Part shown: positions 2,119-42,050 of the stretch, one piece after another
How positions within the stretch are numbered: the first letter of the stretch is position 1
Layout of the letters: the number at the start of each line of letters is the position of its first letter
DNA from: a virus
Taxonomy: Duplodnaviria > Heunggongvirae > Uroviricota > Caudoviricetes
IMG/VR virus record: IMGVR_UViG_2609459854_000002
Direction: 5' to 3' (one strand)
DNA: 42,050 nt
Notes under the pieces: generated by a model
What the model saw: only the letters and a program-made list of their open reading frames with translations
Told to the model about the DNA's origin: nothing
Databases searched by the model: none
Position numbers and translations under genes: made by a program

Positions 2119-3915
2119 TTAGAACTCCTTCACATCTGCGCCAGAAGACACGCTCCAGATCGAAACAGGCGACCCGTTTACACCTATTAACCTTGCTTTC
2201 AACCCATTTCCGCTTGCTCTTGGTACGGTTAAATTTGCAACAGATGGATTTATAGCCCAATCTCCACCATTTAATATGACACTCATTTCAACTACGCCAC
2301 CATTATCAATATCTATTATAGGTGTTTGCACTACCGGGCTTTGTTGATCAATTGGCAGAAAGCCATTGACAATAATAGATGGTCTGAATGATGGGTTTCC
2401 CTGAACGCTAACACGAAGTTGCCCACCCTTAACAAATTCTGTTGCACAAGTATTCATGACAATGCAATACGGATTTACAAAATCAAATGCATAGCAAATT
2501 GACTCCCCATCCATTGGCGTGCAGTTTTCAGCAGTACAATTGGTCATGGTAGTATATTGCATTCCTGACATTCTAAATGACAACTGGTAACCGTTAACCT
2601 GAACAAGGCGCATATCCATAGAAGTGCCTATTACTTTTATTTGACCATCCCTAAAATCTTCAAATAAAACTCCAGCATATCCTTTCCCTGGATATTGTGG
2701 GAAACCGACCATTTCCATTACGCCAGAGAACGGCACATAAGAGAAGCATCCGATATAAGCACATTCAAAAATTGACTGTCTGATAACTGGTGCTGCTGAT
2801 TTTCCTAAAAACAGTCCGTAATAATTTCTATAAGAATCTACGTTTTCTTGTGTTAAGCCAAGCCTTCTAAACATGCAGTTTTCAACTCTACCGTTAACAC
2901 AAAATGAACTCATTGAGTTATCTGTTAGATCCCATTGCTTTGGTATAAAAGCACATAATGCATCCACCTGAAGAATTACTTCTCCATTTTTTGTGAGATC
3001 TATTTTGTCATTTGTTGTTTTATAAAAAACTGTCGCTTCAGCCTTTCCCTGTCCTCTAATTCCCATATTGTCATAAATTGGGATTGTTTTTGATGTATTT
3101 ATGTTTCCAGCAGGAGCCTCTAGAATGCATTTGTTTGAGCGGGCAAAGTTAGTTGCAAGAGTTATAGCTGTTGCGTTATCTGTGACTCCGTCAGGTTTCA
3201 CCCCCCAAAATTGCATGTCGTAAGTGGTAAAATTAATTCGTCTCCATACCATCGTTCCAGTTTCTGGCTTGATTACAATTCCACCATCATCAGCCCACGC
3301 CTGAATGTTATCAACAGACTCGAAAAAGCCGCCACCAAGGTGGTTTTCAGCATGTGTAGTGCTAGCTGCTGATGCTACGTATACAATCTGCCCCGCCTCC
3401 TCTGGAACACAGGAGCGAAGCTCTGAAAGATTGAGAAAGCGGCCAATAGCGTTAAATCCTGTTTTATCAATTAATGAATCATGTGTAGCTTTCAAGATCT
3501 CCAGCTCAATCTTTACGGTTGTGCCTCCATAACCAACCAGAGATGCGCCATCAGGGCCAGAAAGCTCAGCCCTTAACTGGTCTGGAGAATATTTCAGTAG
3601 ATCAGGATAATAGAATTGTTGTGCGCCATACGCATCATATACAGCCATGGAGTGATTCTGTACAGTTACGAACTTGGCAATCTGTCCGTTATATACCGGA
3701 TATCCAGCAGCGTTAATGATGATTGGTTGAGAAACAGGAACGTGCGAGCCGTCTTCGTTCTCTACATAAACCTGAATCTGGTTTTCTGGATTTACCGGGT
3801 CAGTGTCAACCTGACCGATATAAATTTTGCCATTGGCTACGGCTTTAAAAGAACGCGCCATAGTGAAGAGTTGCGAAGGCATCGATACGATCACATTGGC
3901 TGTAATGTCTGTCAT
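2119..3915 (-). CDS. Tailspike protein (P22 gp9-like head-binding domain, distinct receptor-binding body)
   Basis: 598-aa ORF; first ~110 residues ([59 protein letters not shown]...) closely match the P22 tailspike N-terminus as I recall it; the remainder does not match the P22 endorhamnosidase domain. Confidence 0.85.
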
Positions 3916-34259: not shown

Positions 34260-34967
34260 ATGGATTTGAATAAATTCGATGAGCCATTCAGCCCTGAAGA
34301 TATCGAATGGCGAATACAGCAAAGCGGTAAAACACGCGATAGCAAGGTGTGGGCTATGGTGCTGGCTTATGTCACGAACCGGGCAATCATGAAGCGCCTG
34401 GACGATGTTTGCGGCAAAGCAGGATGGCGCAATGAATACCGCGATATTCCCAACAACGGCGGAGTTGAATGCGGCATATCAATCAAGATTGATTCCGAAT
34501 GGGTAACCAAATGGGATGCTGCTGAAAACACGCAGGTAGAAGCCGTCAAAGGCGGTCGTTCCGGTGCAATGAAGCGCGCTGCCGTTCAGTGGGGAATCGG
34601 TCGGTATCTGTATAACCTTGAGGAAGGTTTTGCACAAACATCTCTCGATAAAAAGCAGGGATGGCACAGGGCAAAACTGAAGGATGGAACAGGATTTTAC
34701 TGGCTCCCTCCATCGCTGCCGGGATGGGCAATCCCAGCATCAGATAACAAACCATCACCAGAAAATACCAACCAGAAATCTCCATCGGTTGACTGCGAAC
34801 AAATCCTGAAAGACTTCAGCGATTATGCGTCAACAGAAACTGACAAGAAAAAACTCATCGAGCGTTATCAGCGTGACTGGCAATTAATGGCTGGCAACGA
34901 GGAAGCGCAGGCTAAATGCGTTCAGGTAATGAACATCAGAGTTAACGAACTAAAACAGGCGGCATAA
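34260..34967 (+). CDS. Rad52-family single-strand annealing protein
   Basis: 235 aa; motif ...KRAAVQWGIGRYLYNLE... is characteristic of Rad52/Sak-type phage recombinases (from memory). Confidence 0.65.
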   Translation: MDLNKFDEPFSPEDIEWRIQQSGKTRDSKVWAMVLAYVTNRAIMKRLDDVCGKAGWRNEYRDIPNNGGVECGISIKIDSEWVTKWDAAENTQVEAVKGGRSGAMKRAAVQWGIGRYLYNLEEGFAQTSLDKKQGWHRAKLKDGTGFYWLPPSLPGWAIPASDNKPSPENTNQKSPSVDCEQILKDFSDYASTETDKKKLIERYQRDWQLMAGNEEAQAKCVQVMNIRVNELKQAA

Positions 34968-35441
34968 ATGGGAAGTAGAGGCGTAAATAAGGTGATCATT
35001 ATTGGTCGCCTTGGGCATGATCCAGAAATCAGATATTCACCATCAGGAACGGCATTTGCAAACCTTACAGTTGCTACGTCAGAACAATGGCGTGATAAGC
35101 AAACTGGAGAGCAAAAGGAGCAGACGGAGTGGCACCGTGTGGTAATGAGCGGGAAACTGGCAGAAATTGCCAGCGAATATCTGCGAAAAGGCTCTGAGGT
35201 TTATCTTGAAGGCAAATTGCGGACAAGAAAATGGCAGGATCAAAGCGGACAGGATAGGTTCACTACCGAAGTCATCGTGGGCGTTGGTGGAACCATGCAA
35301 ATGCTTGGTGGCAAGCAAGGAGGCAATGAACAGTCTTCACCTCAGCGAAATAACGGTCATCAACAAAGACAGCAACCTCAGCAGCATGGAAATCACAGCG
35401 AACCACCTATGAACTTCGACGATTCGGATATTCCGTTCTAG
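34968..35441 (+). CDS. ssb: Single-stranded DNA-binding protein
   Basis: OB-fold region near-identical to E. coli SSB as recalled and acidic tail ...[11 protein letters not shown]. Confidence 0.85.
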
Positions 35442-35450
35442 GAGCTGAAT

Positions 35451-35930
35451 ATGAAAATCTGCTCAAGATGCCATCAACAGAAGGAAGAAAGGGACTTTCA
35501 AATCAGAAGAGCATCCAGAGATGGATTAACTGCCGCTTGCCGGGCTTGCCTGGCTGAATATGACAAAGAGCGCGCGGGATTGCCACATCGAGTATCAGCA
35601 AGGAGAGAATATCAATCATCGGAACGCGGCAGAGAACGGTGTAACGCAGCCAAAAAGCGGTTCATTCAGAGCAACCCATGGAAAAGAAAAGCCCACATCA
35701 TCGTGGGTAATTTTTTGCGCGACGGTAAGCTAATCCGACCACCACAATGTGAGTGCTGCGGATCAGAATGTAAACCACAGGCGCACCACTGCGACTACAG
35801 CAAACCAACCGATGTGATGTGGCTCTGCAAGTCATGTCATGTCGAGTGGCACAAACATAACAAACCTATCTACCCAGACGAGGAGCCAGTAACTCTCCCC
35901 TTCCCTCGTCACGCTATTCACGCAATTTAA
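35451..35930 (+). CDS. Cys-rich protein with HNH-like C-terminal motif
   Basis: N-terminal CSRC...CRAC zinc-ribbon-like pairs; C-terminal CECCGSECKPQAHHCDYSKPTDVMWLCKSCHVEWH resembles an HNH nuclease core. Confidence 0.45.
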   Translation: MKICSRCHQQKEERDFQIRRASRDGLTAACRACLAEYDKERAGLPHRVSARREYQSSERGRERCNAAKKRFIQSNPWKRKAHIIVGNFLRDGKLIRPPQCECCGSECKPQAHHCDYSKPTDVMWLCKSCHVEWHKHNKPIYPDEEPVTLPFPRHAIHAI

Positions 35931-35938
35931 GGACTTAC

Positions 35939-36487
35939 ATGAATCACTTAATGGTTGACCTTGAAACAATGGGCAACGGGCCATACGCGCCAGTTATTTC
36001 TATTGGGGCGGTATTCTTTGACCCGAATACCGGAGAAACAGGAGAAGAGTTCTCGGTAAATATCTCGCTTGAGTCATCAATGCGATATCGGGCGCGTCCT
36101 GACGCTTCAACGATTTTATGGTGGATGGAACAGAGTGAAGAAGCCAGAAAATCGCTAACCAGCAACACTCAAGAGCTTTCAACGGCTCTTTCATGGTTAT
36201 CTGAATTCATCATAAAGAACGCTAACCACAAATTCGTTCAGGTTTGGGGGAATGGAGCATCATTTGACTGCGTTATTCTCCGAAACAGTTATTCGCTGAC
36301 AGGGCAGCCAGTTCCGTGGCAGTGGTGGAATGAACGAGACGTAAGAACAATCGTCGAGCTTGGAAAGGTAATAGGATTCGACCCTAAGCGAGATATGCCA
36401 TTCAAAGGAACTCGCCACAACGCGCTTGATGATGCCATCCACCAAACCAAATACGTTTCAGCGATCTGGAAAAAGTTAGCTAAATAA
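35939..36487 (+). CDS. DEDDh-type 3'-5' exonuclease
   Basis: MVDLETMG (Exo I-like D-x-E), WGNGASFD, and HNALDDA motifs. Confidence 0.6.
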   Translation: MNHLMVDLETMGNGPYAPVISIGAVFFDPNTGETGEEFSVNISLESSMRYRARPDASTILWWMEQSEEARKSLTSNTQELSTALSWLSEFIIKNANHKFVQVWGNGASFDCVILRNSYSLTGQPVPWQWWNERDVRTIVELGKVIGFDPKRDMPFKGTRHNALDDAIHQTKYVSAIWKKLAK

Positions 36488-36503
36488 TCAACAGGAGAAA
36501 AAC

Positions 36504-36800
36504 ATGCCAGCGCCTTTGTATGGTGAGGATGACGCGCGCCGCTGTTCCGGCAATTCCGTATCGGAGGTGCTGGATAAATTCAGAAAAAACTACGATCGGA
36601 TAATGTCGCTACCGCAGGAAACGAAAGAGGAAAAGGAATTTCGCCACTGTATATGGCTTGCAGAGAAAGAAGAACGCGAGCGAATTTACCAGACATCAAT
36701 CCGACCATTCCGCAAAGCCACATATACCCACTTCCCTGAATATATCGACCCGCGCCTGCGTAATTACCGCTCACGCTATGGCGCTATCAGTAATGACTGA
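36504..36800 (+). CDS. Hypothetical protein
   Basis: 98-codon ORF in early-left operon orientation. Confidence 0.4.
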
Positions 36801-36974
36801 GGAATTTACCATGAGAGGACTTGCATACAATCCCGGCATTCTTCCGGCAGAAATGATTATTCGCCAACGCGTAAAGCCAATGCCATCGAGAGAGGAATTG
36901 CTTAAGAGAAATTCTTTTCCATCAGTGAATCAAAACAAATATCTGAATGCGATGTGGCGCAAAGGAGGCAACCA

Positions 36975-37229
36975 GTGAGTAATTCAGCACGACTACAGCT
37001 TGGTTTTTCACCGCTATCAAAAACTATCATGCTGGCAAAAATGCGCGATGTTGAAGGTGGACGTATGCGCGTTGGCAATGATCCAGGTCGTGATGTTACC
37101 AATGAGGCTGCTCAATTGGTGTGGCAACTGGTCATGGCTGAAGGTGGTGAGATAGTGTGGGAGCTGGATGATGGTTCTCGCATGGTGTTGAAGGCAGAAA
37201 AGCAGGAGGCAACCAGTGAGCAAGATTGA
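36975..37229 (+). CDS. Hypothetical protein (GTG start after AGGAGG)
   Basis: ORF 36954..37229 in track; start placed at GTG 36975 preceded by AAAGGAGG. Confidence 0.35.
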
Positions 37230-37935
37230 TTATCAGGCACTGCGTGAAAAGGCAGAGAAAGCAACGTGTGGTGTATGGTCGATCGAATATGGAGAGAGTC
37301 GATTTGATGGTGATGATGCGTTAATTCATCGTGAAGTTGCTGGATATATTCCCATTTGCAGAATTGAAGGAGCGCATCCAGAAAGCGGTTTCGATGAAGA
37401 TTTCCAAATGGAACAGCAGGCCAATGCTGAATTCATCGCCGCAGCCAATCCGGCTACCGTGCTGACTCTGCTGGACGATCTGGAAGCAGCAAAAAAGCGC
37501 ATTGCAGAACTGGAAGACGAACCTGTAAGCCAAACTTACAAGTTGCCAGTTAATACACCTTGCCAAGATGCGCCAGCCCATATCTGGCTGCAAACAGCTG
37601 GAGTATGGCCAGAAGATGGCGAGTTAAGCGAATTAACGTGGTGCAGCCACAATCAGCACCATGATGACACACTATATGTTCGAGCTGACCTTGTGAATGG
37701 CAACTATCCGGTAACTCCGGATGGTTGGATAAGCTGTAGTGATCGAATGCCGGAAGACACCAAAATGTTACTGGCATTTAGTCAAGGTGAAATCGTGGCC
37801 GCATATTGGAACTGGGTTGTAAATCCAATTGATTACAAAAAATATAGAGCTTTCACGTATTTATCAGGAAATATCTTGGATGACGTAACTCACTGGATGC
37901 CGCTACCAGAACCGCCTCAGGAGGTTAAGCCGTGA
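37216..37935 (+). CDS. Hypothetical protein (Ea22-like N-terminus / DUF551-like C-terminus, tentative)
   Basis: 239 aa; GTG start in repeated junction cassette; C-terminal ...THWMPLPEPP resembles DUF551 proteins (from memory). Confidence 0.45.
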   Translation: MSKIDYQALREKAEKATCGVWSIEYGESRFDGDDALIHREVAGYIPICRIEGAHPESGFDEDFQMEQQANAEFIAAANPATVLTLLDDLEAAKKRIAELEDEPVSQTYKLPVNTPCQDAPAHIWLQTAGVWPEDGELSELTWCSHNQHHDDTLYVRADLVNGNYPVTPDGWISCSDRMPEDTKMLLAFSQGEIVAAYWNWVVNPIDYKKYRAFTYLSGNILDDVTHWMPLPEPPQEVKP

Positions 37936-38052
37936 TTACAGCACTAGCATGGCATTTCAGTGAAAGCATTTATGGCTGGATGCTGGCAATTACAGCAATT
38001 CAGGATTTGGCAATCACATCGTTTATTTTCAGCCTGTGCAGGAGGTGAAGCC

Positions 38053-38310
38053 GTGAAACACTTACGCTATGACTGTATGGGTGCTGCTTATTCAGGAGAA
38101 AGCAGGCACCCGCAAGAAGTAATTCGCGAGCTTGGTATCACGTATGAGCGCGCTATTCCTCAAAGCATGGGTGACCAGTGGTGGCTATTCAATTGTCAGC
38201 ACGGTGAACTGCCAAAATACATTACTGAAATGAAGTGTGATAACTGGATGGCTAAGCAGTATCTGCTTCCTGATGCATACGTTAACGATAATCAGCCAGC
38301 ATCACAGTAG
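38053..38310 (+). CDS. Hypothetical protein
   Basis: GTG at 38053 preceded by GCAGGAGGTGAAG; track ORF extends upstream to 37960 without an SD. Confidence 0.4.
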   Translation: MKHLRYDCMGAAYSGESRHPQEVIRELGITYERAIPQSMGDQWWLFNCQHGELPKYITEMKCDNWMAKQYLLPDAYVNDNQPASQ

Positions 38311-38321
38311 CAGGAGGTGAA

Positions 38322-38513
38322 GTGAGTATGAGTGCATCACTAATAACCGCCTTCAATCAAAGCGCAAATCCAAGCAATGAGCAGGTTGTTGTGTTCGGCT
38401 GGATTGCTGAGTATTTCGAAAGCATTTTCGACGATGAATCCGCTAGGTATTGCAGGAATATTTCTGAATCACTCAAAAATCAGGTTTCTGCTCAACAGGA
38501 GGTGAAGTCGTGA
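38322..38513 (+). CDS. Hypothetical protein
   Basis: GTG start preceded by CAGGAGGTGAAG; C-terminus QQEVKS encodes the next junction cassette. Confidence 0.4.
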   Translation: MSMSASLITAFNQSANPSNEQVVVFGWIAEYFESIFDDESARYCRNISESLKNQVSAQQEVKS

Positions 38514-38722
38514 GCAAGCACATCATCAAATATGACTATCGAGAGGGAGTTAAACTCCCTAAGCACGAGATTGAGACATGGTGCGGTCATCGGCCTGGTT
38601 CATTCGAATATCTTTTTCAGGATGCTCAGCATGCGCTATTGAGCATTGAGCAGGAAACGCTGCTTGTTCCTTGCAAGAATTGTCTGGCAGCAATCATCAA
38701 AACGGCGCAGGAGGTGAAGTGA
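38510..38722 (+). CDS. Hypothetical protein
   Basis: GTG start overlapping upstream stop (GTGA); C-terminus AQEVK encodes the next junction cassette. Confidence 0.4.
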   Translation: MSKHIIKYDYREGVKLPKHEIETWCGHRPGSFEYLFQDAQHALLSIEQETLLVPCKNCLAAIIKTAQEVK

Positions 38723-39000
38723 TGGACTCCTTCGCGAAATATACGATTATTGACTGGATAGCCTTCCTTCAGGTTTTGCTCATCTGGTTTTATATGGCTT
38801 ACAGGAGTGGACAGTGGATTGTCAGTGTAGCATGTAGCAGGGGATGGCGTTGGTGGAACCAAAAGAATAAAAAAGCACTGGCATTGGATTCGTTTTACGA
38901 AGCATTCAATCTTAACAGCCTTCAGCCTGGTTCTGTCATTGTAGTCACCACTCAAAGCGGCATGACCATTCAGATTCATAAACCAAAAGAGGAAAAATGA
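38722..39000 (+). CDS. Hypothetical protein with one predicted hydrophobic helix
   Basis: ATG at 38722 (or GTG 38719) after CAGGAGGTGAAG; segment IIDWIAFLQVLLIWFYMAY is hydrophobic. Confidence 0.4.
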   Translation: MDSFAKYTIIDWIAFLQVLLIWFYMAYRSGQWIVSVACSRGWRWWNQKNKKALALDSFYEAFNLNSLQPGSVIVVTTQSGMTIQIHKPKEEK

Positions 39001-39158
39001 TGTGGCCTATATGTGTTAATTGCGGACGGATGTGCCTATCTGGATGGTGCCGAAAGTGCGACAAATGCACAAAGCAAAGACAATAACAATCCTCGCACTC
39101 GCGGGGATTTCTTTTATCTGAACTCGCTACAGCGAGTTTTGTTTTATGGAGATGATAA

Positions 39159-39326
39159 ATGCACTTCCGAGTCACAGGTGAATGGAATGGAGAACCATTC
39201 AACAGAGTTATCGAAGCAGAGGACATCAACGACTGCTATGACCACTGGATGATATGGGCGCAGATAGCACATGCAGACGTAACCAACATTCGAATTGAAG
39301 AACTGAAAGAACACCAATCCGCCTGA
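39159..39326 (+). CDS. Small protein in the position of lambda orf55 (tentative)
   Basis: 55-codon ORF just upstream of xis followed by hairpin CCGCC tgat GGCGG + TTTTTTATT (39313..39340); homology not verified. Confidence 0.4.
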   Translation: MHFRVTGEWNGEPFNRVIEAEDINDCYDHWMIWAQIAHADVTNIRIEELKEHQSA

Positions 39327-39365
39327 TGGCGGTTTTTTATTGCGTGTAATTGCGGAGACTTTGCG

Positions 39366-39584
39366 ATGTACTTGACACTTCAGGAGTGGAACGCACGCCA
39401 GCGACGTCCAAGAAGCCTTGAAACAGTTCGTCGATGGGTACGCGAGTGCAAGATATTCCCTCCTCCGGTTAAGGATGGAAGAGAGTATCTGTTCCACGAA
39501 TCAGCGGTAAAGGTTGACTTAAATCGACCAGTAACAGGTAGCCTTTTGAAGAGGATCAGAAATGGGAAGAAGGCGAAGTCATGA
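39366..39584 (+). CDS. xis: Excisionase
   Basis: MYLTLQEWNARQRRPRSLETVRRWVRECKIFPPPVKDGREYLFHESAVKVDLNRPVTGSLLKRIRNGKKAKS, essentially lambda Xis as recalled. Confidence 0.9.
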   Translation: MYLTLQEWNARQRRPRSLETVRRWVRECKIFPPPVKDGREYLFHESAVKVDLNRPVTGSLLKRIRNGKKAKS

Positions 39585-40705: not shown

Positions 40706-40720
40706 TTAGTATAAAAAAGC
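40706..40720. repeat. attL core (B-O-P' junction); 15-bp lambda-type core
   Basis: TTAGTATAAAAAAGC on + strand, identical to the copy at 568..582; phage side (40633..40705) resembles the lambda P' arm, host side continues AGGCTTCA (lambda B arm-like). Confidence 0.85.
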
Positions 40721-40766: not shown

Positions 40767-42050
40767 GTGAACACATTTTCAGTTTCCCGTCTGGCGCTGG
40801 CATTGGCTTTTGGCGTGACGCTGACCGCCTGTAGCTCAACCCCGCCCGATCAACGTCCTTCTGATCAAACCGCGCCTGGTACCTCTTCTCGCCCGATTCT
40901 GTCGGCAAAAGAAGCGCAGAATTTCGATGCTCAACACTATTTTGCATCCCTGACACCAGGTGCTGCAGCGTGGAATCCTTCCCCGATTACCCTGCCTGCG
41001 CAACCTGACTTTGTTGTCGGCCCGGCGGGCACTCAAGGTGTAACGCATACCACGATTCAGGCGGCGGTAGATGCGGCAATTATCAAGCGTACCAACAAGC
41101 GCCAGTATATTGCCGTGATGCCTGGTGAGTATCAGGGAACGGTATATGTCCCTGCCGCTCCGGGTGGAATTACTCTGTACGGTACAGGTGAAAAACCGAT
41201 TGATGTGAAGATTGGGCTTTCCCTTGATGGTGGCATGAGCCCTGCCGACTGGCGTCACGACGTCAACCCGCGCGGCAAATATATGCCAGGTAAACCAGCG
41301 TGGTATATGTACGATAGCTGCCAGAGCAAACGCAGCGACAGTATCGGTGTTCTCTGCTCTGCGGTCTTCTGGTCACAAAACAATGGCCTGCAACTGCAAA
41401 ATCTGACCATCGAAAACACGCTGGGCGATAGCGTAGATGCAGGTAACCATCCGGCGGTGGCACTGCGTACTGATGGTGACCAGGTACAGATTAACAACGT
41501 TAACATTCTCGGTCGTCAGAACACCTTCTTTGTCACCAACAGCGGTGTGCAGAACCGTCTGGAAACCAACCGTCAGCCGCGTACGCTGGTGACCAACAGC
41601 TACATTGAAGGGGATGTGGATATCGTTTCTGGTCGCGGCGCAGTGGTGTTCGATAACACCGAATTCCGCGTGGTGAACTCACGTACTCAGCAAGAAGCGT
41701 ATGTGTTTGCACCGGCTACGCTGTCCAACATTTACTACGGTTTCCTCGCCGTAAACAGCCGTTTCAATGCTTTCGGTGATGGTGTGGCGCAACTGGGCCG
41801 CTCGCTGGATGTTGATGCCAATACCAACGGTCAGGTGGTGATCCGTGATAGCGCCATCAACGAAGGTTTTAACACGGCTAAACCGTGGGCCGATGCGGTG
41901 ATCTCTAATCGTCCGTTTGCGGGTAATACCGGCAGCGTAGATGATAACGACGAAATACAGCGCAATCTGAATGACACTAACTACAACCGCATGTGGGAAT
42001 ACAATAACCGCGGCGTGGGTAGTAAAGTGGTTGCAGAGGCGAAGAAGTAA
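40767..42050 (+). CDS. ybhC: YbhC-like pectinesterase-family lipoprotein (host gene flanking the prophage)
   Basis: 427-codon ORF beginning at GTG with lipoprotein signal (…LALAFGVTLTACSS…); recognised from memory as E. coli YbhC; complete, ends at window end. Confidence 0.85.
   Translation: MNTFSVSRLALALAFGVTLTACSSTPPDQRPSDQTAPGTSSRPILSAKEAQNFDAQHYFASLTPGAAAWNPSPITLPAQPDFVVGPAGTQGVTHTTIQAAVDAAIIKRTNKRQYIAVMPGEYQGTVYVPAAPGGITLYGTGEKPIDVKIGLSLDGGMSPADWRHDVNPRGKYMPGKPAWYMYDSCQSKRSDSIGVLCSAVFWSQNNGLQLQNLTIENTLGDSVDAGNHPAVALRTDGDQVQINNVNILGRQNTFFVTNSGVQNRLETNRQPRTLVTNSYIEGDVDIVSGRGAVVFDNTEFRVVNSRTQQEAYVFAPATLSNIYYGFLAVNSRFNAFGDGVAQLGRSLDVDANTNGQVVIRDSAINEGFNTAKPWADAVISNRPFAGNTGSVDDNDEIQRNLNDTNYNRMWEYNNRGVGSKVVAEAKK

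Follow-up and report, generated by a model that had tools for sequence, protein, structure and literature searches.

Why are eight small and mutually dissimilar genes of a single prophage joined end to end by copies of the same short sequences? The question is raised by IMG/VR virus record IMGVR_UViG_2609459854_000002, a stretch of 42,050 nucleotides (nt) that we analysed as a whole and call the window, and within it by the genes at 36811-39000, all on the plus strand, where seven successive gene boundaries repeat a strong Shine-Dalgarno (SD) sequence, a spacer and a start codon. An earlier note on this DNA had described these boundaries as one junction cassette, CAGGAGG(T/C) followed by GTGA, which would couple the translation of neighbouring genes and offer a short homology block for shuffling them. 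The comparison of the locus with its relatives makes it likely, as far as sequence can tell, that the junctions are a shared ribosome-site and start-stop linker at which small accessory genes are shuffled, in other words a boundary or linker sequence.

Two classes of junction motif

The recurrence of the motif is real and far above chance. AGGAGG followed after 3-8 nt by GTGA occurs eight times in the window, against 0.34 expected, and seven of the eight matches lie within 36963-38722; of the 16 AGGAGG sites on the plus strand of the whole 42 kb, seven fall within the same 1.75 kb. There are four exact copies of the 12-mer CAGGAGGTGAAG (38039, 38311, 38496 and 38708) and one with a single mismatch (37918), a count that was reached in none of 100 shuffles. 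A repeat search recovered the motif copies as families of direct repeats, spaced by 241 nt in one family and by 121, 272, 185 and 212 nt in the others; this irregular spacing equals the lengths of the genes. All seven junctions and all seven GTG codons are where the earlier note had located them, but they do not follow a single motif. Two classes can be distinguished: class A, AGGAGGCAACCAGTGAG, is present in two copies (junctions 1 and 2, at 36963 and 37204), and class B, CAGGAGGT(G/T)AAG followed by YCGTGA or TGA, in five (junctions 3 to 7, at 37918, 38039, 38311, 38496 and 38708). Nor does every junction begin with CAGGAGG, since junction 1 reads AAAGGAGG.

Class A joins the first three genes of the block, which were assigned by Pfam and PHROG searches: a DUF2737 gene (36811-36978), a DUF7446 gene (36975-37229) and a gene with Ead/Ea22 and DUF551 similarity (37216-37935). 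At junction 1 (36963-36979, AGGAGGCAACCAGTGAG, repeat family D5) GTG 36975 overlaps the TGA of the DUF2737 gene (36976-36978). Junction 2 (37204-37220) is the direct repeat of junction 1, 241 nt past it, and supplies GTG 37216 of the Ea22-like gene. The open reading frame (ORF) upstream of junction 2 crosses the motif in another frame (..KQEATSEQD*) and ends at 37229.

The five class B copies join the remaining genes. Junction 3 (37918-37935, CAGGAGGTTAAGCCGTGA, family D2) has GTG 37932 of a hydrophobic ORF of 38 amino acids (aa; ORF call, 37932-38048) overlapping the upstream TGA, whereas at junction 4 (38039-38056, CAGGAGGTGAAGCCGTGA) the TGA, at 38046-38048, lies within the SD itself and GTG 38053 opens an 85-aa ORF (ORF call, 38053-38310). 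Junction 5 (38311-38330), a short form of the motif (CAGGAGGTGAAGTGA, family D1), comes right after the TAG at 38308-38310 and offers two starts, GTG 38322 or ATG 38328, to an ORF of 63 or 61 aa that ends at 38513 (phrog_23654). Junction 6 (38496-38513, CAGGAGGTGAAGTCGTGA) again has a GTG, at 38510, that overlaps TGA and belongs to a 70-aa ORF (phrog_4090, 38510-38722), and at junction 7 (38708-38724, short form CAGGAGGTGAAGTGATG, family D1) TGA 38720-38722 overlaps ATG 38722 of a DUF4752 gene (38722-39000), with GTG 38719 in frame one codon upstream. All seven copies span the stop/start junction, with stop-start offsets of -4 nt (junctions 1, 3 and 6), -1 nt (junction 7), -14 nt (junction 2), +4 nt (junction 4) and +11 or +17 nt (junction 5). 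The claim that each GTG overlaps or just follows the upstream stop is therefore to be qualified at junction 2, where the 14-nt overlap (stop 37227-37229) is not a GTGA overlap, and at junctions 4 and 5, where the stop lies inside the SD and ahead of the motif, respectively. The 38-aa ORF, MITALAWHFSESIYGWMLAITAIQDLAITSFIFSLCRR, has no family match in Pfam or PHROG and may, given its hydrophobic composition, encode a small membrane peptide.

Five of the seven proposed GTG starts are well supported, and for the other two the ATG codons at 38328 and 38722 are the more likely starts. The RefSeq records of mEp043, HK106 and Escherichia coli ET826 annotate GTGA-overlapping starts at the class A junction and for the 70-aa ORF; the equivalents of ATG 38328 and ATG 38722 are the starts annotated in RefSeq mEp043, and the PHROG profile phrog_23654 begins at ATG 38328, two codons past GTG 38322. 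The two codons can replace each other at one position in homologues, as in ..cccaATGagcaac of P22 eaD and eaF and ..accaGTGagcaag of E. coli phages, or before a gene beginning 'MANLQL', which is preceded by ..TTAACCGTG (15 cases) or ..TTAACCATG (4 cases), i.e. by both ..AACCGTG and ..AACCATG. Diverged homologues of the 85-aa ORF (loci L091, L109 and L198) have a GTG directly behind the motif, downstream of unrelated genes, and the 38-aa ORF is found again, 74% identical in protein sequence, with other genes on either side of it (loci L120, L180 and L178); both ORFs are elsewhere independent cassettes with the motif at both ends. A 116-aa ORF that PGAP annotates across junction 4 in E. coli ET826 (locus L007, NZ_CP100901, 5134-5484, equivalent to window 37960-38310) was rejected in favour of the 38-aa and 85-aa cassettes, because the homologues of the latter start at the motif GTG and the former recurs separately. 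The longer ORF is probably an annotation error that recurs among E. coli prophages.

The block is distinctive in the strength of its SD sequences and in its choice of start codons. The duplex energies between SD and anti-SD at the seven junctions range from -10.3 to -11.6 kcal/mol, compared with -5.8 to -7.4 kcal/mol for 10 of 12 neighbouring genes, all 12 of which start with ATG. Promoter-like sites are absent from 36400-39400 (0 vs 4.9 expected) and no plus-strand terminator-like site occurs before 39088, so the block reads as a single polycistronic unit whose only repeated signals are translational. At the junctions there are no inverted repeats of at least 10 nt within 60 nt and no Rfam match, the sole sub-threshold hit being a Leu_leader on the minus strand at 39083-39141 (21 bits, against a gathering score of 50). 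Local folding gave a mean unpaired probability of AGGAGG between 0.17 and 0.68, with neither consistent sequestration of the SD nor a common structure. A structured RNA or riboswitch was rejected on these grounds (no Rfam match, no inverted repeats, no shared fold). The first plus-strand terminator-like hairpins are found at 39088-39139, past the DUF4752 gene, and at 39319-39332, past a phrog_676 gene. Homology breakpoints also cluster at 39082, 39105 and 39279, and module borders downstream of the motif block therefore coincide with terminators.

Gene exchange at the junctions of related loci

Whether genes are exchanged precisely at the motif was asked by comparing the junctions with those of related phages and prophages. 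The anchored sample consisted of 80 IMG/VR loci chosen by a nearly identical abc2, and hence not selected for the motif; eight annotated phages or prophages were added for breakpoint mapping (88 loci), and a wider set, which included loci from scans for the exact motifs, comprised about 300 related loci. Mosaicism is pronounced in this region. None of 50,697 phage records and none of 5,426 complete E. coli genomes covered at least 80% of 36700-39100, while partial matches were obtained in 450 phage records and in 2,769 of the E. coli genomes. The junction motifs are conserved in the related phages, and cassettes are exchanged, inserted or deleted exactly at them.

Among the 88 loci, homology to the window ends at 36959 (52 distinct patterns), 36982 (15 patterns) and 37916-37934, and starts at 37204 (47 patterns), 38296-38311, 38494-38496 and 38700-38707. 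One and the same DUF2737 3' end, with its class A motif, can be followed by seven or more different sequences. Within the anchored sample, 16 upstream and 9 downstream flank clusters meet at class A in 30 combinations, and the exact 16-mer of this class, among the matches listed, is found in 154 distinct contexts (31 upstream and 15 downstream clusters, 56 combinations). For class B, the listed matches in loci with protein similarity to the prophage give 31 upstream and 18 downstream clusters in 50 combinations; the raw IMG/VR counts (61 and 48 clusters) were set aside as inflated by loci without detectable kinship to the phage. The seven motif copies of the window are the most on one strand of any locus examined.

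When one representative was taken per combination of neighbours, conservation was seen to extend about 15 nt upstream of both motifs and to vanish a few bases past the start codon. The consensus with its upstream tail reads ..cAGcTtCGCAA followed by AGGAGGCAACCAGTGA for class A, and ccaGCaGCaCCGCAG followed by CAGGAGGTGAAGYCGTGA for class B. In diverged relatives, whose flanking proteins are 74-81% identical, the motif is exact. In one genome per species (185,579 species) the class A 19-mer AAAGGAGGCAACCAGTGAG had eight exact matches, two of them in Escherichia, where about four would be expected by chance (an estimate); by this count it appears to be essentially confined to Escherichia. The 19-mer was also observed on a 1.4-kb contig binned into an 'uncultured Sutterella' metagenome-assembled genome (CAJKAP010000027.1, locus L333), which may be a mis-binned fragment of an E. 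coli phage.

Filled and empty sites are the footprints of this exchange, and their alignments leave no ambiguity. In ten present/absent events all of the sequence between two direct copies of the motif is present in one genome and lacking in another, with one copy left and both flanks matching; the cassettes concerned measure 241, 212, 272 and 1237 nt. The 241-nt DUF7446 cassette (junctions 1-2) is absent from locus L010 and from mEp043, in which the order is DUF2737, motif, ead, and the 212-nt cassette of the 70-aa ORF (junctions 6-7) is absent at single-motif sites, e.g. in phage Gally. The 185-nt cassette of the 61-aa ORF (junctions 5-6) is absent from E. coli ET826, a case found by eye, and there too a single motif is present. 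Through class B, C-termini of the DUF551 type (..HWMPLPEPPQEVK) connect to three or more different genes downstream, as in the window, in ST104/HK106 and in IME10.

When 76 distinct ea regions were compared all against all, breakpoint density came to 117 per kb up to 20 nt from a motif, while the remaining predicted gene ends had 39 per kb and all other sequence 21 per kb. A breakpoint was found within 20 nt in 95% of the motif junction contexts, as against 58% of other junctions. This excess supports, at the level of sequence comparison, a role for the motifs beyond that of any gene end. Breakpoints also recur inside the Ead/Ea22 and DUF551 gene (37216-37935), at 37485, 37545-37554, 37692-37699 and 37751-37755, where there is no motif. 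They fit the known mosaicism of ea22, which has been described at the domain level for the variants of Stx phages (PMC10834534).

Weighing the explanations

The shared protein tails were a reason to ask whether the peptide is the conserved object. As the earlier note had observed, the motif is translated as a QEVK(P/S) C-terminus in three proteins (PQEVKP at 37935, QQEVKS at 38513 and AQEVK at 38722), and class B is read in this frame in 57 of 61 upstream flank clusters and at 3 of its 5 junctions in the window, as would be expected if ..APQQEVK(P/S) were a functional tag (a degron, or a targeting or interaction signal). Yet junctions 4 and 5 keep the nucleotide motif without this reading, the former as ..CRR* and the latter past the stop; class A gives the tail ..KGGNQ* in 19 clusters and, through a different frame, ..EATSE(QD)* in 9; and variants of the DUF551 tail change V to A or M, K to N, and Q to L while retaining GGAGG. 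For these reasons the constraint is on the nucleotides and not on the peptide, the shared tails (..APQQEVKP/S, ..RKGGNQ, ..EATSEQD) are the motif in whichever frame the upstream gene arrives, and a peptide tag is hardly credible. The co-oriented repeats with roughly similar spacings might also recall a tandem duplication of one ancestral small gene, but a paralogous array is refuted by the genes themselves: pairwise comparison of the eight proteins revealed no significant similarity (best E = 0.028, over 36 residues), they belong to different Pfam and PHROG families, and the irregular spacing is that of gene lengths, which reduces this origin to a practically negligible probability. An identical ribosome site and spacer on several co-transcribed early genes could instead be a common translational operator, recognised by a single RNA-binding protein or small RNA, of phage or host origin, for coordinated repression, much as RegA of T4 binds several early mRNAs, and the greater conservation of the motif than of the flanking coding sequence in the diverged relatives is in keeping with it. 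We found no candidate regulator, Rfam match, local inverted repeat or consistent sequestering structure for such an operator, and the comparative data are fully explained without a regulator; we consider it very unlikely.

Two further explanations bear on how the junctions came to be alike. If each gene had independently evolved a maximal SD and a stop/start overlap, recombination would have had no part in the matter. AGGAGGTGA is the exact complement of the 3' end of 16S rRNA, the duplex energies are near maximal, the DUF551 tails form a graded series of variants that keeps GGAGG while residues change, and 47 of 120 class B 18-mer matches, among the IMG/VR matches listed, are in loci without detectable kinship to the phage, all of which convergence would produce. 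It would leave unexplained the identical arbitrary spacers (CAACCA; AAGYC), the existence of two discrete classes, the use of GTG over the commoner ATG and the shared tail of about 15 nt; neighbours in the same operon do well with an ordinary SD and ATG, and in the one-genome-per-species data the class A 19-mer hardly occurs outside Escherichia. Convergence as the only cause is thus quite improbable, and for class A pure convergence on an optimal ribosome site seems unlikely because the 19-mer is near chance level across species genomes, yet the 16-mer has more than 120 IMG/VR matches. Illegitimate recombination followed by selection, the view of the Hendrix school cited as the alternative in PMC3029335 and PMC3945230, holds that joints arise at random and that only those at gene ends survive, the motif being a passenger and not a crossover site. 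Filled and empty sites are compatible with it, many breakpoints lie off the motif, e.g. within the Ea22-like gene, and the commonest other joint after DUF2737 (GAGTGGGAAGAAATGA, of the hkaH type) has no motif. What it does not explain is a base-exact junction common to 15 (class A) or at least 18 (class B) downstream and about 31 upstream sequences per class, nor a breakpoint density at motif junctions three times that of other gene ends, and we judge it unlikely as a full account.

The linker reading is, in our opinion, the probable one. Each gene boundary is a compact expression joint, with a near-perfect SD in, or directly behind, the upstream gene's 3' end and, 6-10 nt past it, a start codon (GTG or ATG) overlapping or adjoining that gene's stop, so that a ribosome finishing one small gene would start the next by reinitiation; the architecture fits the translational coupling that had been proposed for the motif. 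The arbitrary bases of the spacer, together with a tail of some 15 nt ahead of the motif, are common to many unrelated genes in the pool of E. coli lambdoid and P22-like phages. Different genes are thereby flanked by one and the same stretch of 16-30 nt, which could act as a short homology block for crossover. Recombination within the motif would then insert, delete or replace whole cassettes while leaving the reading frame and the ribosome site intact. The likely enzymes would be phage annealing proteins of the Rad52-like, Erf or Red type, acting between co-resident phages or prophages, and the Rad52-family protein of the window (34260-34967) may be one such catalyst of short-homology exchange. 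With short and diverged homologies, phage annealing proteins of this kind are much more efficient at recombination than RecA (PMC2327257, PMC3945230). Exchange driven by the motif would be rare per infection, yet adequate on an evolutionary time scale, and the motifs may be under some selection for evolvability.

Several points weigh against the linker reading. The minimum quoted for Red-beta is about 30 bp (PMC3945230), and exact identity here is of 12-20 nt, reaching about 30 nt only with the partly conserved tail. The filled and empty structures are equally expected if each cassette carries its own 5' ribosome site. The motif sites are gene ends, at which selection for intact genes alone would concentrate surviving breakpoints, and the comparison of breakpoint densities with other gene ends rests on crude ORF calls and on related, non-independent loci. 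Lastly, the class B matches without detectable kinship cited above count here as well. Nine of the 12 bases of CAGGAGGTGAAG are perfectly complementary to the 3' end of 16S rRNA, so the identity of class B could be partly convergent, and convergence may indeed contribute to this class.

Prophage setting and relation to known cassette systems

The 42-kb window contains a 40-kb P22-like prophage at att-lambda. The lambda att core GCTTTTTTATACTAA is exact at 568-582 and at 40706-40720 and bounds the prophage, which is flanked by a ybhB-like PEBP gene (1-477) and a ybhC-like pectinesterase gene (40767-42050). It encodes a P22-type portal, large terminase and a tailspike with the P22 head-binding domain, together with a cI-type repressor and Xis and Int of lambda type; a P22-type virion module is thereby paired with lambda-type int/xis at att-lambda. 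An antiterminator N peptide was matched weakly, below threshold. The early-left genes, on the plus strand, begin with the candidate N (32954), continue with a recombination module and lead to the motif block. This module, directly upstream of the block, consists of the Rad52/Rad22-family single-strand annealing protein (34260-34967, Pfam), SSB (34968-35441), a 3'-5' exonuclease (35939-36487) and the anti-RecBCD protein Abc2 (36504-36800), all on the plus strand. Lying between abc2 and xis, the motif block (36811-39000) is the 'ea' region of P22, or 'exo-xis' region of lambda. A Cys-rich ORF of 159 aa at 35451-35930 (+), between ssb and the exonuclease gene, contains AHHCDYSKPTDVMWLCKSCHVEWH and resembles a free-standing HNH endonuclease, with no Pfam match at 1e-3; an annotated HNH endonuclease is present in the ea region of HK629. 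On the attL side, an Acyl_transf_3 family gene (939-2048, -) beside the tailspike gene (2119-3915, -) is probably an O-antigen acetyltransferase moron of lysogenic conversion.

As to what the cassettes do, the location next to recombination genes had suggested anti-restriction or anti-defence functions. No support for such a role was found: the cassettes belong to DUF or PHROG families without an assigned function, a PADLOC defence search of the cassette genes gave no match, and no PDB sequence relatives were found for the three cassette proteins searched. Ea22, the only studied family of the block, has been tied to the lysis-lysogeny decision, and its genes are mosaic (PMC10834534).

The concept of a lambdoid linker is already established, and the window is an especially clear instance of it rather than a new kind of element or mechanism. 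In the modular theory (Susskind & Botstein 1978; Botstein 1980), as outlined in PMC3029335, PMC2839356 and PMC3945230, conserved linkers flank exchangeable modules, and short conserved boundary sequences were described in phage HK620 by Clark et al. (2001), according to the summaries in the same three papers, where such sequences are put forward as sites of homologous exchange, in opposition to illegitimate recombination. As in those cases, a short sequence is conserved at the borders of unrelated units, in the same phage group and genomic region; the motif lies between genes, transitions of similarity between phages coincide with it, and cassettes are found whole in other contexts. The difference is that here the linker is itself the ribosome site with the start/stop overlap, and that the units are single small genes (121-272 nt) instead of functional modules. 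HK620 hkaG is preceded by aaaggaggcagccaGTGagcaag, a class A motif with one mismatch, and P22 has degenerate ATG versions before eaD, eaF and orf45. The exact motif strings were not found by a literature search, which did not cover Clark et al. 2001.

Other systems share some of these features. Coupled overlapping genes, as in the lambdoid nin region and in bacterial operons, similarly show GTGA overlaps (junctions 1, 3 and 6), TGATG (junction 7) or gaps of at most 17 nt, the SD lying in the upstream ORF or next to it, but ordinary junctions each differ in sequence, whereas here the whole junction, spacer and tail included, is identical at many unrelated gene pairs. The analogue with the best experimental support is the set of PeSL cassettes of T4-type phages (Arbiol et al. 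2010, PMC2839356), in which promoter and stem-loop repeats flank small non-essential early ORFs in hyperplastic regions; ORFs are inserted, deleted or replaced between neighbouring copies, homologous recombination at the repeat has been proposed, and mini-circles have been shown experimentally (PMC2839356). Both systems have repeated expression signals around small early ORFs that are gained and lost between copies. PeSL units, however, are intergenic and make their cassettes transcriptionally autonomous, while the repeat of the block studied here is a translational signal that lies within coding sequence and is carried by one polycistronic transcript, with no promoter-like site, terminator or inverted repeat; a PeSL-type promoter/terminator cassette was excluded, as its defining features are absent from the block. 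Integron cassettes too are small, promoterless, co-oriented and unrelated, with a recurring site at their bounds, and are gained or lost singly. They differ in having an attC-like imperfect inverted repeat and an IntI-type integrase, neither of which is present here: the sole integrase of the window is a lambda-type Int with an arm-binding domain, acting at att. An attC array was excluded for want of inverted repeats and because the integrase is of lambda type, and any exchange would therefore use general or phage homologous recombination.

One might speculate further that lambdoid phages have a recombinase-independent, integron-like cassette system, in which the shared linker of 16-30 nt is kept partly because the phage's own annealing protein, of Rad52, Erf or Red type, excises, captures and reshuffles cassettes; we hold this bolder idea tentatively, and consider it doubtful. 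Excision would then take the form of deletions or mini-circles and occur at a measurable frequency in every mixed infection or induction. With similar reserve, the block could by analogy be regarded as the translational counterpart of the T4 PeSL system.

The origin of phage mosaicism is debated between short-homology recombination and illegitimate joining followed by selection (PMC3945230, PMC3029335). The locus packs seven joints into 1.75 kb, its cassettes are single genes, and relatives that have been sequenced supply matching filled and empty sites; it is an unusually clean natural example for the short-homology view, and a convenient experimental test bed for this debate. The motifs also bring to light errors of annotation, among them ORFs that were fused and GTG starts that were overlooked, and can be used as anchors to delimit and catalogue the accessory genes of the exo-xis region, which change fast, in E. 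coli prophages, Stx phages among them.

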